A stretch of 64,000 bases of DNA, from NCBI GenBank assembly GCA_963735595.1, contig CAVTLK010000001.1, positions 64,001 to 128,000 on the forward strand. Direction: 5' to 3'. The notes beneath the pieces are model-generated. The model was not told the origin of the DNA, did no database searches, and saw only the letters and a program-made list of their open reading frames with translations. This stretch comes from an uncultured delta proteobacterium. GTDB taxonomy: Bacteria > Desulfobacterota > Zymogenia > Zymogenales > Zymogenaceae. Each line of letters starts with the position of its first letter. Position 1 is the stretch's first letter. The translations under genes and the position numbers were made by a program. Positions 4,144-11,172 of the stretch are shown one piece after another.

Positions 4144-4194
4144 TGGCGGAGGGACGCCCGGCGTGTCGGTACCGGGAGGCCGGGACAGGCCGCG

Positions 4195-5104
4195 TCAGGC
4201 CGATTCGGCGATACCGCGGATGATCGAGAGTATCTCGAGGTACTTGTTCCTGGTCCCCTCGACGATATCGGGCGGCAGGGCAGGGGCCGGCGGCCGCTTG
4301 TCCCAATCGGTGGTCTCCAGCCAGTCCCGGACGAACTGCTTGTCGTAGCTTGCGGGGGACTCTCCCAGGCGGTAGGACTCCACCGGCCAGAAGCGGGACG
4401 AATCGGGCGTCAGCGCCTCGTCGATCAGGATGACCCGTCCGTCGTAAATCCCAAACTCGAACTTGGTGTCGGCAAGGATCACCCCGCGCTCGCGGCAGGC
4501 GGTCGTGGGCGAAGCGGTAGATCGAAAGCGACAGCTCTCCGACGGTGCGGACGACCTCGCGCCCAGGAGGCCTTCGGCGTCCGTCACGGAGATGTTTTCG
4601 TCGTGGCCCACGTCTGCCTTGGTGGAGGGGGTGAAGATCGGCTCCGGCAGCTGCTCGGCAAGCCTGAGGCCCGCCGGGAGCGCTATGGCCGGAGATCATC
4701 CCGGTCTTCTGATAGTCCTTGTAGCCGGAGCCCGCCAGGTACCCGCGGACGATGCACTCGAGGTCGACGCGCTGTGCCTTCCTGACGAGCACCGATCTGC
4801 CGGAAAGCTCGGGCCTGCCCGTGAAGGGGGCGGGGAATTTGGCGGCGTCGGTCTCGATGATATGGTTTTCGACGAACGTCAGCAGCGAAAACCAGATGTT
4901 GGATATCTCGGTGAGTATCTGCCCCTTGCCGGGGATGCCGTCGGTAAAGACCACGTCGAACGCCGAGAGGCGGTCCGTGGCGACGATGATGAGGCTGTCG
5001 CCGAGGTCGAAGATCTCCCGGACCTTGCCGGAATAGTCGGGCCGCCTGCCGTCGACGGCGATTGAGGTGAGGGCGTGTGGGGTCTGTTCCACGTTTTCTT
5101 TCAT
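4195..5104 (-). CDS. purC: SAICAR synthetase, frameshifted
   Basis: YSGKVREIF, VATDRLSAFD, ECIVRGYLAGS, ILADTKFEFG, DEALTPDSSRFW, SYDKQFVRDWL. Confidence 0.95.
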
Positions 5105-5111
5105 GGGGGCG

Positions 5112-5140
5112 ATTGTAGCAGATCGGGGCGTGCCGGTCAA
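5112..5140 (-). promoter_or_regulatory. sigma70 promoter of purC
   Basis: minus strand TTGACC-17 nt-TACAAT with extended TG, ending 7 nt before the ATG. Confidence 0.7.
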
Positions 5141-5263
5141 CGTTTTTTGCCGGGCGCGTATCATTTCCGGGCAGGGGGAAAGGCGAACCGTTTGACCGCC
5201 CGGCGCATCATATAGAATAGAGAAGGCCGCAACGGTGCGGCAGGACAGATTGCCGAACGGCGG

Positions 5264-5290
5264 CAAGCCCCGAATAAGGGGCTTTTTATT
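5264..5290 (+). terminator. intrinsic terminator-like hairpin
   Basis: AAGCCCC-GAATAA-GGGGCTT followed by a T-rich tract. Confidence 0.55.
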
Positions 5291-5296
5291 TTAAAG

Positions 5297-5495
5297 AGTG
5301 TCGCCTTCGGCGACGTTTATTATCGTCATTGCGAGGAGGCCGTCAGGCCGACGCGGCAATCTGCAGCAATGTCGCCCCCGGCGACGTTTATTATCGTCAT
5401 TGCGAGGGGCCGAGGCGCCGCGGCAATCCCCTGTCTGTCACGATCAACCCCTTCCCCGTCATTGCGAGGAGGCCGTCAGGCCGACGCGGCAATCT
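5297..5495 (+). repeat. cluster of three REP/RPE-like palindromic elements CGTCATTGCGAG...GCAATC
   Basis: copies at 5324-5362, 5395-5428 and 5457-5495 (first and third identical over 39 bp); the first two are preceded by a TGTCGCC..CGGCGAC hairpin. Confidence 0.9.
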
Positions 5496-5683
5496 CGGAC
5501 GCGACTTAGTCTCGCGGGCCCATTGAGTATGTATGCGGTAAGCATCTCGCACAGGACTGATGAACATGGGGCAGGTTCATTCTTCCTGTAAATTATTCAT
5601 AGAATTTACTATACCTATGTCCCACTGTATTATAATCATGCATAATTGACAGGAAATTATAGTACATTATATGCCTTTTTTGC

Positions 5684-5712
5684 TTGACACGTCCCCCATT
5701 TTATGGCATAAT
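5684..5712 (+). promoter_or_regulatory. sigma70 promoter
   Basis: TTGACA-17 nt-CATAAT upstream of the lytic transglycosylase gene. Confidence 0.6.
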
Positions 5713-5790
5713 TATTACTAACAAATCAAGAAACCCACAAGACCAACAATCCCACTGATAAAAATCTGTTGTCTATTTAAGAGGTGCTGT

Positions 5791-6495
5791 GTGAAGCTCA
5801 ATGTAAATTGGACTATGTTTGAGGACCGTGCGCAAAAGATGAGAATGAAACAGAGGCACAAGTGCCCGAAGCTCGTGACCTGGTCGCTGGTCTGCCTGAC
5901 GGTCGTCGCGATCACCGGCGCGGCGCTGGTATCCCGCGTGGTGGTCGGGCCGGAATCGGTCGACCGCCTGGTGCGGACGGCCTGGCTTTCGGACGAGACG
6001 GCAGCCTGTCGGAAAGGATCAATTCTTCGATCTACGACTATATCCACTCGTTCAATACGGGGCTTTCGGACTCCGAGGAGCGCGAGCTTGCAACGCTGAT
6101 CTATTTCGAATCGATGAAATACGGATACGACCCGGAGTTTATCCTGGCCATTATCCAGACCGAGAGCGCGTTCAACCCGGAGGCCGTCTCCAACGTGGGG
6201 GCGTACGGGCTGATGCAGCTGATGCCTTCCACCGCACGCGAGATCGCCCACGAGGTGAAGATCCCCTTCGAGGGCAAAAGCACGCTGAGCCAGCCGGACC
6301 TGAACGTCCGCATGGGGACGTATTATCTGTTTAAGATGATGCTCCAGTTCAAGGACGTGCGGCTGGCGCTGGTGGCCTATAACTGCGGGCCGGGGTTCGT
6401 GGAGGAGATGGTCAGAGAGGGGCAACAAGCTGCCCGAGGAGTATGTGGATAGGGTCATGGGGAATTACGAGAAGATCAAGACGATGGGGATGTAG
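5791..6495 (+). CDS. SLT-domain lytic transglycosylase with N-terminal membrane anchor, frameshifts near 6010 and 6420
   Basis: AIIQTESAFNPEAVSNVGAYGLMQLMPSTA and ALVAYNCGPG motifs. Confidence 0.9.
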
Positions 6496-6524
6496 ATTCG
6501 TCCAACGCATATAACGCGCGCACG

Positions 6525-6551
6525 AAAAACCCGCCGAAAGGCGGGTTTTTT
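6525..6551 (+). terminator. intrinsic (bidirectional) terminator
   Basis: AAAAACCCGCC-GAAA-GGCGGGTTTTTT. Confidence 0.9.
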
Positions 6552-6594
6552 ATATTTTTCTCTAAAACGAAGTACTAAATATGTGATTTTTATT

Positions 6595-6623
6595 TTGACA
6601 GAACTTGTACAATAGTTTAAAAT
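6595..6623 (+). promoter_or_regulatory. sigma70 promoter of the islet operon
   Basis: TTGACA-17 nt-TAAAAT. Confidence 0.7.
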
Positions 6624-6656
6624 TAATAAAAAGTAGTTTAATTATAGGAATGAAAT

Positions 6657-6880
6657 ATGAGTGAAGATAAACTTGATATTATCATTGCGCAAGGCTAAAA
6701 ATGCTCACTAAAATTGTGGCACTTAGTATGATGAAAGATAGTCTGGGTAAGCTAGATAAGACTAAAGATAGAATAAAACTCGTGATGGATTTGGGATTTA
6801 CGGACAAAGAAGATATCGCTAATTTAGTAGGTTCAAATCCTGAGTCTGTAAGAAAAGCCATTGAAAGAATGAAAAGTTAA
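6657..6880 (+). CDS. small HTH protein (cassette 1, gene A), frameshift near 6693; not in ORF track
   Basis: MSEDKLDIIIAQ then KMLTKIVALSMMKD...RIKLVMDLGFTDKEDIANLVGSNPESVRKAIERMKS*. Confidence 0.7.
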
Positions 6881-6896
6881 CGTAGAGGTGTTCCGA

Positions 6897-7145
6897 ATGA
6901 CAAAAGAGAGTAATAAAGAACTATTAGGACAAATGCTAATACTTAATAGGTTGGTAGCGTTGTTAATATTTTCGATAGAGAAAAAGAATAGCCAAGTGGA
7001 GAGAATTGAATTGTTGAAAACGACAGGTTTCAGACCGGCAGAAATTGCACAGCTAATAGCGAAGCCAGTGAATTTCGTAACAGCAAATATCAGCAAGATA
7101 AAGAGTAAGGATAGTAAAGAAAAAGAAGTAGTAAAAAGTAAATAG
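6897..7145 (+). CDS. small HTH protein (cassette 1, gene B)
   Basis: SD GAGGTG; ERIELLKTTGFRPAEIAQLIAKPVNFVTANIS HTH-like motif. Confidence 0.75.
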   Translation: MTKESNKELLGQMLILNRLVALLIFSIEKKNSQVERIELLKTTGFRPAEIAQLIAKPVNFVTANISKIKSKDSKEKEVVKSK

Positions 7146-7171
7146 TAGATTATTGAAGATAAACCTGGAAA

Positions 7172-7756
7172 ATGATAAATAGGAAGGTTAGAGAAGAATT
7201 GTTGAGGAAGTTCGGTTATAAAAAACCTCAACCTCTTTATAAGAAAATTAGCGATATAGTAGAAGCATTCCCATTAACGCCGGAACAGGCCGCGTATTTA
7301 TTGGCTCAATATAGGGGTATAGTGTTATCAAAATACTTAGGGAGTACCGAACTCGCTGAAATACAAACCCTCTTCGGTCGCTATGATTTGTCCCGGTACG
7401 CCCTCGGCCGTAAAAGGCCGACTAAGCAAGAAGTTGCGACTGCAGAGAAAACTAGAGTTCAATTGAGTATAACAAGAAGTCAGAAAAAGAGTAACGTTGG
7501 CGGGAAAAGGAAGAGAGCGGTAAAATACGGCTTTTCGTATAGGAATTTATTAGTTACGTCCGCATTGTTTCTTATAGTTCTTTTGTGCACCCTTTTCTTC
7601 ATAAAACGGTACGGAGAAGGTGAGAATTATCTTCAAAAAATAGCTAATACCTCAGATATTCTACTCTTCGAGTTCATAGCGTATTCATTTATTGCGTCAG
7701 CATCCGGACTTTTCGACAGGATAAGGGGTTATCTAAAGGACAAGTTGAGTATATAA
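7172..7756 (+). CDS. hypothetical protein: shared N-terminal domain, basic linker, two TM helices (cassette 1, gene C)
   Basis: 194 aa ORF; N-terminus aligns by eye with 8162..8971; hydrophobic LLVTSALFLIVLLCTLFFI and ILLFEFIAYSFIASASGLF. Confidence 0.75.
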   Translation: MINRKVREELLRKFGYKKPQPLYKKISDIVEAFPLTPEQAAYLLAQYRGIVLSKYLGSTELAEIQTLFGRYDLSRYALGRKRPTKQEVATAEKTRVQLSITRSQKKSNVGGKRKRAVKYGFSYRNLLVTSALFLIVLLCTLFFIKRYGEGENYLQKIANTSDILLFEFIAYSFIASASGLFDRIRGYLKDKLSI

Positions 7757-7767
7757 CTAGCTACTAA

Positions 7768-7878
7768 ACATTCTATATATTAAAACACGTAGGTTTCCAG
7801 AATGAAGAGATAGCCTCGTTGTTTGGGGCTAACGAAGAAACCGTAAGGTCAATACTAAGCCGGTACAAAAGAAGATAA
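7768..7878 (+). pseudogene. 5'-truncated small HTH gene (cassette 2, gene A)
   Basis: frame reads TFYILKHVGFQNEEIASLFGANEETVRSILSRYKRR* with no start codon after the in-frame TAA at 7765. Confidence 0.65.
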
Positions 7879-7890
7879 AGGAGTTGATCG

Positions 7891-8121
7891 ATGGACAATG
7901 ATAGCGGTAAGGAGCTTAGAAACGACAACTACAGCGAGCTTGTCGATGAGGTAAGAAAGATAAAAAGCCTTTTAGCATTTGTACTTGCTAGTCAAGGTAC
8001 TGAATTGACCGAAGATAAGAGAATGAGAATCTTAGAATATGGCGGCTTTAGCCAATCACAGATTGCAGAACTAATCGGAGTAAATCAGAGCACCGTGAGC
8101 AGACATCTAAAAAAAGGATAA
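7891..8121 (+). CDS. small HTH protein (cassette 2, gene B)
   Basis: SD AAGGAG; RMRILEYGGFSQSQIAELIGVNQSTVSRHL HTH. Confidence 0.85.
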   Translation: MDNDSGKELRNDNYSELVDEVRKIKSLLAFVLASQGTELTEDKRMRILEYGGFSQSQIAELIGVNQSTVSRHLKKG

Positions 8122-8161
8122 ATGTTAGCAATAATGGGACAATTTAAATCGGTCTTTTGAA

Positions 8162-8971
8162 ATGAGATATACTGACCTAGTAGAAAAACTAATAAAAAAG
8201 TTAGGTAGTAGGGCAACGGTATATAGAAGAGCCGGTGAACTGGGAGAAGAGCTCTTTATACCGACGAAGGAGGCCATGTACTTGTTGGCCTTTAGCGAAA
8301 AAATCGGCCTGGAAGACTTATTGGATGGAGCCGAAAAGGATAGACTTAGGGTGATGTATTTCACTTATAAGGACAGAATTGGGGAACCTAGTACTTCGAA
8401 GGATACCGCTAAGACTCCAGAAACTCGGAAAAACAGACGCAAGTCAAAGGGGGAGGTTGTACTGAATATTGATGATTTGGGTAATATAGTGCCAAGGGTC
8501 CTATTACCAGAGCAGAAGTTTAAAGACGCCGTCGAAATGGCGAAGATGTACATTCTACTATATGTAGTAGAGAATTCTATAAGGGAAGTTATCGACCTAA
8601 GAATGCATAAGATATACGGCCCAAATTGGTGGGATTTGAAAGTACAAAAGAAGCGAAAAGACAAAGTTGACGAAAGGAAACAGGACGAGCATGCAAACCC
8701 GTGGTTTGGCCAAGAAAGAGGGGCTAGACAGATCGACTACCTTGACCTAAATGAACTTCCCGATATTATACATAATAATGAGAAGGATTTTATACCGGAC
8801 ATCTTCCCAACATATTCCTGGATAGATGAAAAGATTCATGACCTTTATAGATCAAGGTGCGTTGTCGCCCACATGAACCATCTTAAAAAGTATAATAGGG
8901 AAGACGTAAAGGGCATCCTAAGGAAGTTGGAAGCTCAAATAAAGGCAAAGAAGACTCTGATTATGCCCTAG
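8162..8971 (+). CDS. Swt1-like HEPN domain protein (cassette 2, gene C)
   Basis: YILLYVVENSIREVI...GPNWW...DYLDLNELPDII and RX4H motif RCVVAH near the C-terminus. Confidence 0.8.
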   Translation: MRYTDLVEKLIKKLGSRATVYRRAGELGEELFIPTKEAMYLLAFSEKIGLEDLLDGAEKDRLRVMYFTYKDRIGEPSTSKDTAKTPETRKNRRKSKGEVVLNIDDLGNIVPRVLLPEQKFKDAVEMAKMYILLYVVENSIREVIDLRMHKIYGPNWWDLKVQKKRKDKVDERKQDEHANPWFGQERGARQIDYLDLNELPDIIHNNEKDFIPDIFPTYSWIDEKIHDLYRSRCVVAHMNHLKKYNREDVKGILRKLEAQIKAKKTLIMP

Positions 8972-8991
8972 CTGAAGAAAACCTTCTCCCC

Positions 8992-9575
8992 CTACCGCTT
9001 CCTCAGCACAAACAGGCACGATTCCTGCCCCATGGCCTTGCACGTCTCCTCCACCACCTGCATCACCCCCTTGCCGTAGGTCCAGTCCGTCATGAACTGG
9101 AGCCCCCCGCCGTATTGCGAGCAGTAGGGCTTGGCGCTTTTTGCGCCGGTGCAGGTGAGGCAGTCGAACACGTCAAAGCGGGGCAGGCCGTCCTCCCCGA
9201 TCACCACCCGGCCCTTGTTGAGCACGGCCTGCGAAAATTCGAAGCACTTGACGATCTTTTCGCCCGCGGGCAGGTCCTTGATGGAATCCAGCGCGTGGTA
9301 CGTCATCACGCCGAACTCGACGTTCTTGTAGCCCATCTGCCGGAGGATCCCCTGTGCGCCCACCGCCCCCACGAGCGCGATCGTTTCCCGGTAGATGGCC
9401 GCCTGTTCGGAGAGCGTGAACCCCTTGTCGAAGGTCGGCTCCGGCGGGGAATCGATGACGCGGAGAGGCCCGCGGCCTTGAAGATTATCTTTCGGGCGTT
9501 TTCGCCCATGACCTCCCCGAGGCTGTCGTATGCCGCGCGGATAGCCATATTGGAAACGGTCTTTTCCTCGCTCAT
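8992..9575 (-). CDS. V4R domain protein, frameshift near 9470
   Basis: MSEEKTVSNMAIRAAYDSLGEVMGENARKIIF; C-terminal DCLTC...YCS...VEETCKAMGQESCLF. Confidence 0.8.
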
Positions 9576-9806
9576 GGCACACCTCCATTGGATTGAGGGT
9601 ATCGAGAAACGCACTCAGGAAGAACAGGGGGGATCGACCCGCGATAGGTGCACTATCGCGTCCGGCTCGTTCGGGCGAAGTATATCCGATACTATAATTA
9701 TACTACCGTATTATAAAAATGCCATCTTTTTACGGCGCGGGCGTCGGGGCGGGCCGGTGTGAAAACCGGGAGATCGGGGTAACTGCGGCAGGAAGCGGGG
9801 GAGGGG

Positions 9807-10847
9807 CTACTCGAAAATCCGCAAGATCTCGTCGCGCTCCCGGTAGGGGAGCGGCTCGGTCGTCCCGTTTGTCCGAACGATGAGAACAGAGTCGTGCGAT
9901 TTGACCGATTTCCCCGATTTCACCAATCGCCGAGACCGGGATGCCCTTCTTCGCGAACGCGCCCTCCACGGCGGCCCGGTCGGCCGGGCGCGGCGGTAAA
10001 GAGCAGCGCGCCGGAGGCGATCGTGCCCAGCGGGTCTATCCCGAAGGCGTCGCATACGACCCGTCCCTCGGGGTAGACGGGGATCGCGTCCTCGCGCACC
10101 GTGATGGAGACGCCCGCCGCCATCGCCAATTCATTCAAGCCCGCCGCGAGGCCCCCCTCGGTGGGGTCGTGCATGGCCGTGATCTGGGCGGCGGAGGTCG
10201 CCGTCATCGCGTCCGTGACCACGCTGATGCCGGGGTCAAAGAGAAAGCGCCGCGCGCGCTCGATCGTCGCCTCGTCGATCCCGCGCTCGCGCAGGGCGTC
10301 GGCCTTTTCCTGGGCGATGATGGCCGTCCCCTCCACGGGTATCCCCTTGGTCAAAAAGAGGAGGTCGCCCGGCCGTGCCCCGCCGGTGGTGACGAGCCTG
10401 TCCTTTTCGACCTCGCCCAGCATCATGCCGGAGACGACGCGGCTGGTTCACGGCGTCGGTCACCTCGGTGTGGCCGCCCACGAGCGTCAGGCCGAAGGGG
10501 ACCATGGCCGCGCGCAGCTCGTCGAACACGCTACGGGCCGTCGCCTCGTCGCTCGCCGACAGCGGTAGCAGGATCGTGGCCAAGAACCAGAGGGGCCGCG
10601 CCCCGCGTACGGCGATGTCGTTTGCGTTGACGTTGATGGCGTAGTACCCGATGTTTTCGGCCGTAAACGTGATGGGGTCGGCCGTGACGATCAGGTAGCG
10701 GTCGCCCATGTCGATGACGGCGGCGTCTTCGCCGATGCAGGGGCCCACGATCACGCGGGGGTCCGCGGCCGGAAAATCGGAGAGTATCCGTCCCAGCAGG
10801 TCGTATTTCAGTTTTCCGGTGGGGAGCTTCGTGTCGTTCGTTTTCAT
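9807..10847 (-). CDS. AIR-synthase-related (HypE/ThiL-like) protein, frameshifted
   Basis: GPCIGEDAAVID, TADPITF, NANDIA, VGGHTEVT, MHDPTEGGL, C-terminal ERDEI. Confidence 0.85.
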
Positions 10848-10899
10848 GTTACCCGTTTATGTCGATTATGGGGAGGCGATGTATCGTACCGGACGCGCA

Positions 10900-11172
10900 C
10901 ACGGACAACGGGGTTGTCCGTGGCACCCAGCCCGTGTTTGAACCCGCAGGGGTCGCATATATGCGACCCGCGGAACGACGAAGGAGAAAAAGGGACAGTG
11001 TGAGTCGTTCCCGGTGACAGTCAGGGGATTGCCACGACACTATCACCCCAAAAGGCAGGCCTTTTGGGGGCCCGATTAAGCGCACAGGCCTCGCAATGAC
11101 AATAATAACCGTCGCCGAAGGCGACAATGCTAATCATAGCCGAGTCGCCTCCGGTTCCTCGCAATGACGATA
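10900..11172 (-). repeat. cluster of REP-like palindromes including two copies of the GTCATTGCGAG element
   Basis: CACGGACAAC/GTTGTCCGTG hairpin; perfect palindrome GGGTCGCATATATGCGACCC (10950-10969); CTCGCAATGAC near 11090 and 11158; TGTCGCCTTCGGCGAC hairpin as at 5299. Confidence 0.85.

Follow-up and report, generated by a model that had tools for sequence, protein, structure and literature searches.

The window analysed here, a 64,000-nucleotide stretch of the genome of an uncultured delta proteobacterium (contig CAVTLK010000001.1, positions 64,001 to 128,000), contains a low-GC islet at 6556-8993 that carries a real, conserved and apparently unnamed candidate defence system. In this system, an array of small genes encoding helix-turn-helix (HTH) proteins precedes an effector gene with a characteristic N-terminal domain, and the islet holds two such effector genes, C1 (7172-7756, + strand) and C2 (8162-8971, + strand). 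The domain is homologous to the AROD/DUF2240 domain of archaeal RPA, a link that appears to be new, and several effector types are swapped behind it, namely Swt1-type HEPN, Ymh-type HEPN, CAP12-type TIR and transmembrane (TM) parts. The islet probably constitutes an anti-phage abortive-infection operon.

The N-terminal domain of C1 and C2 is homologous to archaeal AROD

By direct BLASTP, the N-termini of C1 and C2 are weakly similar (24% over 85 amino acids (aa), E=0.004). A hidden Markov model (HMM) of the domain was built from the first 78 columns of 39 full-length C2 relatives, excluding the row of the window itself; C1 reaches 46.8 bits against it and C2 31.9 bits. Genome-wide, over 77,900 segments, the corresponding E-values are 3.9e-12 and 1.2e-7 and the next best is 0.23, bearing out the homology between the third genes of the two cassettes that the initial annotation had proposed.

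An AlphaFold2 model of the shared domain has four helices (pLDDT 90). Compared with 48,161 chains, it finds its best fold match in the AROD of Pyrococcus abyssi Rpa1 (Z 7.5, root-mean-square deviation 2.0, 54 residues, 33% identity; Foldseek probability 0.94), followed by an unrelated fold at Z 4.9. While a fold Z of 7.5 alone lies in a range common for helical bundles, AROD homology is confirmed independently of the fold, because a diverse domain profile matches Rpa1 residues 8-55 with E=9.5e-8 (single domain 3.7e-5; next match 0.25). Pfam DUF2240 weakly matches three of 19 domain members (best E=4e-4), and beyond these and generic HTH matches no Pfam family was found for the domain. The ESM Atlas returned no usable match for either domain query.

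Madru et al. (2023; PMC10122647) describe AROD as an acidic bundle of three helices, specific to archaea, that makes protein-protein contacts and has no DNA binding of its own; it touches OB folds with all three helices, with salt bridges involving K16, E23 and E27. The bacterial domain resembles it in its three-helix bundle and in its N-terminal position ahead of a linker. It differs in having a fourth helix and in being basic, with an average net charge of +4 and conserved R7, K13, R24 and R64; K16 is retained (87%), E23 has become Ala (75%) and E27 Arg (77%). Furthermore, AROD is fused to RPA OB folds or stands alone, whereas the bacterial domain is fused to HEPN, TIR or TM parts in the full-length matches classified, a set that leaves aside 51 short domain matches. 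Because of this altered surface, we infer that the bacterial domain probably does not engage an OB fold as its partner in the AROD manner.

These features bear directly on the strongest alternative to the docking model set out below, which holds that the AROD-like domain itself senses phage: it would bind phage OB-fold single-stranded DNA-binding proteins (SSBs), cluster on filaments of SSB and single-stranded DNA (ssDNA) and switch on oligomerisation-dependent HEPN, TIR or TM effectors, leaving the array a purely transcriptional role. Such a sensor would preserve the ancestral role of AROD. The homology to AROD and the OB-fold contacts of all three AROD helices speak for such a role, as does the finding (bioRxiv 10.1101/2022.08.27.505566) that phage SSB triggers retron Eco8 and Hachiman; DRT4 and DARNA are reported to be triggered by it as well. 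However, two of the three salt-bridge residues are lost and the domain is basic rather than acidic, while simple repression would leave unexplained the translational coupling of as many as five diverged HTH paralogues to the effector. We therefore regard SSB sensing as unlikely.

The same positive charge could also point to nucleic acid as the ligand. The basic domain and the basic linker behind it would then bind phage DNA, ssDNA or RNA, alone or beside a DNA-bound array, and thereby localise or oligomerise the effector. The conserved basic residues, a Lys/Arg-rich linker shared by C1, C2 and those relatives that were inspected, and weak Pfam HTH/MarR matches over domain helices 1-2 are compatible with this. 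On the other hand, archaeal AROD does not bind DNA, and the idea that the domain is an HTH homologous to that of the array was rejected (hhalign 3.8%), HTH folds matching it at Z ≤4.4 as against 7.5 for AROD. Nucleic-acid binding as the main function thus appears quite improbable.

Effector types are exchanged behind a constant domain

A 32-row domain profile matched 274 representatives at E≤0.001, and the best 150 of these 274 were classed, using our own HMMs, as 80 Swt1-HEPN fusions, 51 proteins with fewer than 60 residues after the domain and 19 others. The last group comprises seven Ymh/TIGR02391 HEPN and two CAP12-type TIR fusions (both by Pfam), two proteins with hydrophobic tails (C1 and P0176, the latter with one TM segment) and eight that, on visual inspection, resemble broken or partial HEPN fusions. 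With a second profile of greater diversity, 14 longer proteins were recovered: eight TIR fusions, four Ymh fusions that had been part of the query, and C1 and C2 themselves. This inventory of effectors is a minimum, since the query was biased towards HEPN and only the best 150 of 274 matches were classed. It upholds the claim of the initial annotation that varied toxin-type effectors share the domain. Four of the eight TIR fusions (P0192, P0194, P0196 and P0197) carry a C-terminal Fis-type HTH, which may be a true third domain or read-through into the remnant of a neighbouring regulator.

C2 combines the AROD-like domain (8162-8368) with a basic linker and a Swt1-like HEPN part, whose RX4H motif (8855-8872) reads RCVVAH at R232-H237. 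Its C-terminus matches Pfam PF18731 (Swt1-like HEPN) with E=2e-4 and 22 bits, below the cut-off of 27.5, while several homologues of C2 score above that cut-off, and the PADLOC PDC-M34B model matches C2 residues 109-254 with E=4e-33. The RX4H motif is retained in 81 of 92 full-length Swt1-type proteins. C2 is accordingly predicted to be a Swt1-like HEPN RNase, in agreement with the earlier assignment, and its gene looks intact.

In C1, the AROD-like domain (7172-7384) and a basic linker precede two predicted TM segments at about 7547-7603 and 7658-7714. The two TM helices originally proposed are not equally clear: the hydrophobic segment at residues 126-144 is strong (Kyte-Doolittle (KD) value 2.87), that at residues 163-181 moderate (KD 1.78). 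Among 165 candidates no full-length homologue of C1 was found other than C1 itself, leaving the two-TM tail without a homologue. The reading frame stays open for 123 codons after the domain, the chance of which is about 5e-5.

Two further gene types were observed beside the effectors. In the arrays of L053, L063, L089 and L093, the HTH genes are separated from the HEPN gene by a gene of 330-344 aa (3905-4939 in L053); its product has a winged-HTH N-terminus and a C-terminus that by eye resembles a nuclease of the restriction-endonuclease fold, with no Pfam or PADLOC match, and it is possibly a second kind of effector. In L002, the open reading frame (ORF) directly after the HEPN gene (896-1546) has the look of a class III nucleotide cyclase by eye and no Pfam match at E≤1e-7.

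Arrays of small HTH genes precede the effector genes

To describe the genetic context, 97 loci were assembled: 80 metagenome and 12 genome loci through HEPN peptide patterns and five through domain searches. Loci were thus chosen by HEPN peptides and not by HTH genes. The set is biased towards Swt1-HEPN versions; the Ymh-HEPN, one-TM and Paceibacterota TIR proteins come without DNA context. In 70 of the 97 loci, a domain-bearing ORF is accompanied by at least 300 nucleotides (nt) of upstream sequence, and a small HTH gene lies upstream on the same strand in 69 of them (30 of the 31 clusters formed at 70% identity). The sole exception has a 5'-truncated domain whose start is lost. In 65 of the 69 loci, no more than 100 nt separate the end of the nearest small HTH gene from the domain gene, and the two often overlap. 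An H-family gene (see below) is also found upstream in both TIR loci recovered, in each of which the TIR gene is broken.

Arrays contain one to five HTH genes and are mainly composed of two kinds, H (a long helix followed by a three-helix HTH) and W (a helix followed by a winged HTH). Two H subtypes are homologous to each other at 98.9%, and the first 14 residues of H proteins are acidic (-1.4, -1.9). A fold search with an H protein returned generic sigma-4/LuxR-type HTH structures (Z up to 6.2). No Pfam family for H proteins was found beyond generic HTH matches; neither NCBIfam, at cut-off, nor PHROG holds a family for H proteins or the shared domain. In two loci arrays flank the effector on both sides. 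Extra small helix-HTH genes are seen downstream of the effector in L100 (228-970) and L082 (502-932); some of the downstream genes belong to a divergent subtype, H5, also present in L032, L040 and L094.

The islet itself contains four small HTH ORFs on the + strand, two in front of each effector gene, and a single H-family HMM built from other loci matches all of them (next match 5.6e-4). A1 (6657-6880; E=3.5e-8) is frameshifted near 6690-6700: it starts at 6657 and meets a stop after 14 codons, and its HTH continues in another frame to 6880. B1 (6897-7145; 82 aa, E=3.9e-13) is intact. A2 (7768-7878; E=2.2e-6) is the start-less C-terminal, HTH-bearing half of an H-family gene, whose N-terminal half gave no signal in any of the three frames, including under the end of C1. 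B2 (7891-8121; 76 aa, E=3.9e-6), also intact, has Pfam HTH matches in addition. Although B1 and B2 cannot be aligned pairwise, all four ORFs match one family HMM, and 'A' and 'B' are therefore paralogues of one family rather than two fixed gene types. The initial annotation had described a gene order repeated twice, each time with a pair of upstream HTH genes. This holds for B1, C1, B2 and C2, whose four ORFs are all intact; A1 and A2 are a frameshifted gene and a remnant, and across loci the fixed pair gives way to a paralogue array of variable size.

The distribution of the system is patchy, at about 1% of genomes. Within the host phylum, 301 genomes were searched, and an identical pair of them matches the domain profile and the HTH (H) profile. 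One of 301 Dehalococcoidia genomes matches both, and one further genome carries an H-H-W array near a contig end; in Terriglobia, five of 301 match the domain. Centre genomes are included in the 301-genome totals. An additional candidate, G478, was excluded as an unrelated winged-HTH protein by eye. Database records add carriers in Planctomycetota and a TIR protein in Paceibacterota.

The islet lies in a defence hotspot

In line with the AT-rich character noted earlier, the islet has a GC content of 38%, compared with 57% across the 3.63 Mb genome. It fills a variable slot (6556-8993, no strand assigned) between the terminator of a lytic-transglycosylase (SLT) gene and a V4R-domain gene. The flanks are 83-95% identical in two genomes of the same genus, G217 and G125, which carry different cargo at this position. 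The G125 slot (L125 1188-2573) encodes a reverse transcriptase of 461 aa with a Drt4/Drt6 match (E=8.5e-158), while the G217 slot (L124 1150-3790) holds a heavily decayed locus with fragments matching GajA and GajB of Gabija. In G247 unrelated short ORFs occupy the slot as far as the contig reaches; in two further genera of the family, a short spacer stands at the slot position. The SLT terminator-V4R slot is thus a defence hotspot of the genus, in keeping with the defence-island enrichment that the initial annotation named as support, and it merits mining in additional genomes for other occupants. Since known anti-virus genes take up the equivalent position in sister genomes, the islet is likely to encode an undescribed anti-phage system, whose small HTH proteins would restrain or trigger the toxin.

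The neighbours of homologous loci are mixed. Of 223 neighbour representatives, 92 were scanned at E≤1e-7; many of them are housekeeping genes, and the others include one restriction-modification gene of type ISP, DNA methylases and Fic proteins (two each), AbiEi, HEPN, DUF4209, Cas1, ArdC and an integron-cassette protein.

A selfish or stress-response module of the toxin-antitoxin type, in which several HTH proteins act as antitoxins or repressors and which has no anti-phage role, would share the arrangement of small HTH genes upstream of a toxin, with their own promoter and candidate operators (see below), and would fit the patchy spread and the many loci without defence neighbours. Against it stand the sharing of the slot with DRT4 and Gabija, the immune-type TIR and TM effectors, and the distribution on mobile elements. 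Unlike many addiction modules, the system is absent from the phages searched: none of 21 and none of three candidate stretches from IMG/VR were confirmed, phage records contained no relative and a viral fold search gave no significant match. Plasmids yielded a single record, which covers the HEPN part only. We give this alternative little credence.

Promoters and candidate operators

A candidate sigma-70-type promoter, TTGACA-17-TAAAAT, lies at 6595-6623 (+ strand) ahead of the first HTH gene. As noted in the initial annotation, it is close to consensus (11 of 12 positions); it is the best among six sites, the chance expectation for the loose class being 5.6 sites. Promoter-like sites were also recognised by eye upstream of many homologous arrays. 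The dyad TTAC-N7-GTAA, a motif picked after looking, occurs twice per promoter in 10 of 43 loci, with about 0.1-0.2 expected each; the 10 loci consist of one cluster of eight related loci and two others. The window contains no copy of this dyad. Such operator-like sites agree with the transcriptional role that SSB sensing would assign to the array, and autoregulation of the array is plausible under any reading. A second candidate operator family was observed upstream of the Acidobacteria-type arrays L067, L068, L071 and L092, where GCTAA/TTAGC half-sites occur two to four times per promoter.

Comparison with known defence systems

CBASS, Pycsar and retrons combine a constant core with swappable HEPN, TIR or 2TM effectors. 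The system described here follows a similar logic and draws on the same effector pool, including CAP12-type TIR, but its constant part is the HTH array together with the AROD-like domain. None of the islet ORFs contains a cyclase, a reverse transcriptase or a nucleotide-sensing domain, and no CD-NTase or pyrimidine cyclase was found among the islet ORFs or the 92 neighbours scanned (E≤1e-7). In EAD systems, a small helical N-terminal adaptor is common to diverse effectors; these differ from the present system in that no NTPase core is found here and the partners encoded are small HTH proteins. Pfam EAD models do not match the domain, the search being limited to families present in Pfam. Likewise, HEPN-MNT toxin-antitoxin pairs have no counterpart here, as no minimal nucleotidyltransferase is found upstream, the upstream genes encoding HTH proteins.

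Among the PADLOC models (v2.0.0, 2023), no named system was matched, and models match effector parts only, in agreement with the initial annotation, which recognised no named system. The candidate system PDC-M34 comes closest, its B model matching the HEPN part of C2. However, the B models (147-192 positions) leave the N-terminal domain uncovered, and an HTH array is present here. PDC-M34A models do not match any of the six islet ORFs; model PDLC04589 matches only another contig of this genome (G000) and none of four other system-bearing genomes. As no PDC-M34A gene is adjacent, membership in PDC-M34 was rejected. At L129 1081-1929 (G000:C4), a separate gene encodes a 282-aa protein with an N-terminus matching PDC-M34A (E=3.8e-18) and a C-terminal RNECAH motif, which suggests that this genome encodes, at another place, a protein fusing PDC-M34A to a HEPN part. 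In homologues, the PD-Lambda-3 and PDC-S35 models recognise the Ymh-HEPN and TIR parts; these matches are confined to the effector, extending into the linker at most (the PD-Lambda-3 B model matches only the effector part of P0110/P0174), and none of the array genes tested is matched by a model of either system.

With the Swt1/Abi2-family HEPN proteins (Anantharaman et al. 2013, PMC3710099), C2 shares the HEPN clade and the RX4H motif. The accessible parts of that paper list fusions to DUF499 ATPase, TM, PLD, ParB and helicase/wHTH giants and mention neither the AROD-like domain nor an HTH array. The literature on PDC-M34, DUF2240, AROD and Swt1-HEPN plus HTH contained no description of this system, as far as it could be searched (subscription papers and supplements lay outside the search); a paper on anti-phage effectors, PMC10853773, proved unrelated. 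The family may nevertheless appear in supplementary tables of papers on defence discovery.

A proposed model of array-controlled effectors

How the array and the effectors might work together can be pictured as follows. Array proteins would form hetero-oligomers by way of their long, amphipathic N-terminal helix and contact DNA with the HTH, and some of them at least would repress their own promoter. The AROD-like domain, the only part common to every effector, would serve as an adaptor to the array complex, which would keep the toxin off until infection disturbs it. Phage infection would then release or cluster the effector, be it through shut-off of the host, degradation of DNA or contact of a phage DNA-binding protein with the array. 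HEPN dimers would cut RNA, TIR domains deplete NAD+ or TM tails damage the membrane, and the infected cell would arrest. These last two steps are modelled on the established behaviour of the effector families, since HEPN, TIR and TM effectors in other immune systems act after dimerising or oligomerising. In this genome, the TM cassette would provide a second effector on the same promoter.

Docking of the array on the AROD-like domain as the gate of the toxin is the simplest arrangement and quite possible, if short of probable. It is backed indirectly by the tight coupling of the genes, their reciprocal co-occurrence, the protein-contact role of AROD and the opposite charges of the domain and the H proteins. 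Several observations weigh against it or against a defence role. The domain of C2 itself is slightly acidic (-2). When H and W proteins are compared by hhalign, their HTH parts align and their N-terminal helices do not. The make-up of arrays is mix-and-match, L001 having winged-HTH genes only, and in four loci other genes lie between array and effector. The 51 short-tail matches among the best 150 of 274 are contig-end fragments or stand-alone domains, the latter of which could be effector-free. Many homologous loci lie among housekeeping genes, with defence neighbours in some only. Finally, a universal operator over 34 promoter clusters was rejected, since the best dyad count was 4 and shuffled sequences reached up to about 3.8.

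On a broader view, we tentatively propose that the system may represent a new class of immune system, in which mix-and-match tiny HTH proteins form a combinatorial sensor or guard complex that is wired through a domesticated AROD domain to several cell-killing effectors, the domain either reading the array or recognising phage SSB. If true, this would add an undescribed core module to the immune systems built on a constant sensor and swappable effectors, with carriers, per database records, in the poorly sampled phyla Chloroflexota, Acidobacteriota, Planctomycetota and Patescibacteria. AROD/DUF2240, published as archaea-specific and tied to RPA, is extended to bacterial toxin proteins, linking a replication-fork interaction module to immunity. 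Docking on the HTH array and sensing of phage SSB are two sharply testable ideas, and the whole system, at about 1.3 kb, is cheap to synthesise.

Limits of the islet and sequence quality

The left edge of the slot is formed by an intrinsic-terminator-like hairpin of the upstream SLT gene (6524-6551, + strand), which is also present in G217, G125 and G247. No integrase, transposase or flanking repeat was seen at the islet (6556-8993).

The window assembly is probably error-prone. About ten single-base indels lie in the genes flanking the islet (window 4183-6555 and 8994-10986), at positions where G217 and G125 agree with each other. They split or shift the purC, SLT, V4R and purM-like genes, and the intact sister proteins map onto the window in two frames. 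Because of these indels, the frameshift in A1 may be a sequencing or assembly error. A single indel would not account for A2, since about half of its length is missing. Two public read runs contain 7-8% of the words; the exact pieces listed (6962-7112, 7188-7338 and 8363-8643) miss the A1 and A2 sites, and the runs listed include no RNA dataset. Outside the islet, a short, partly palindromic repeat family was observed at about 5300-5500 and 10900-11170, with many copies in all three same-genus genomes searched.

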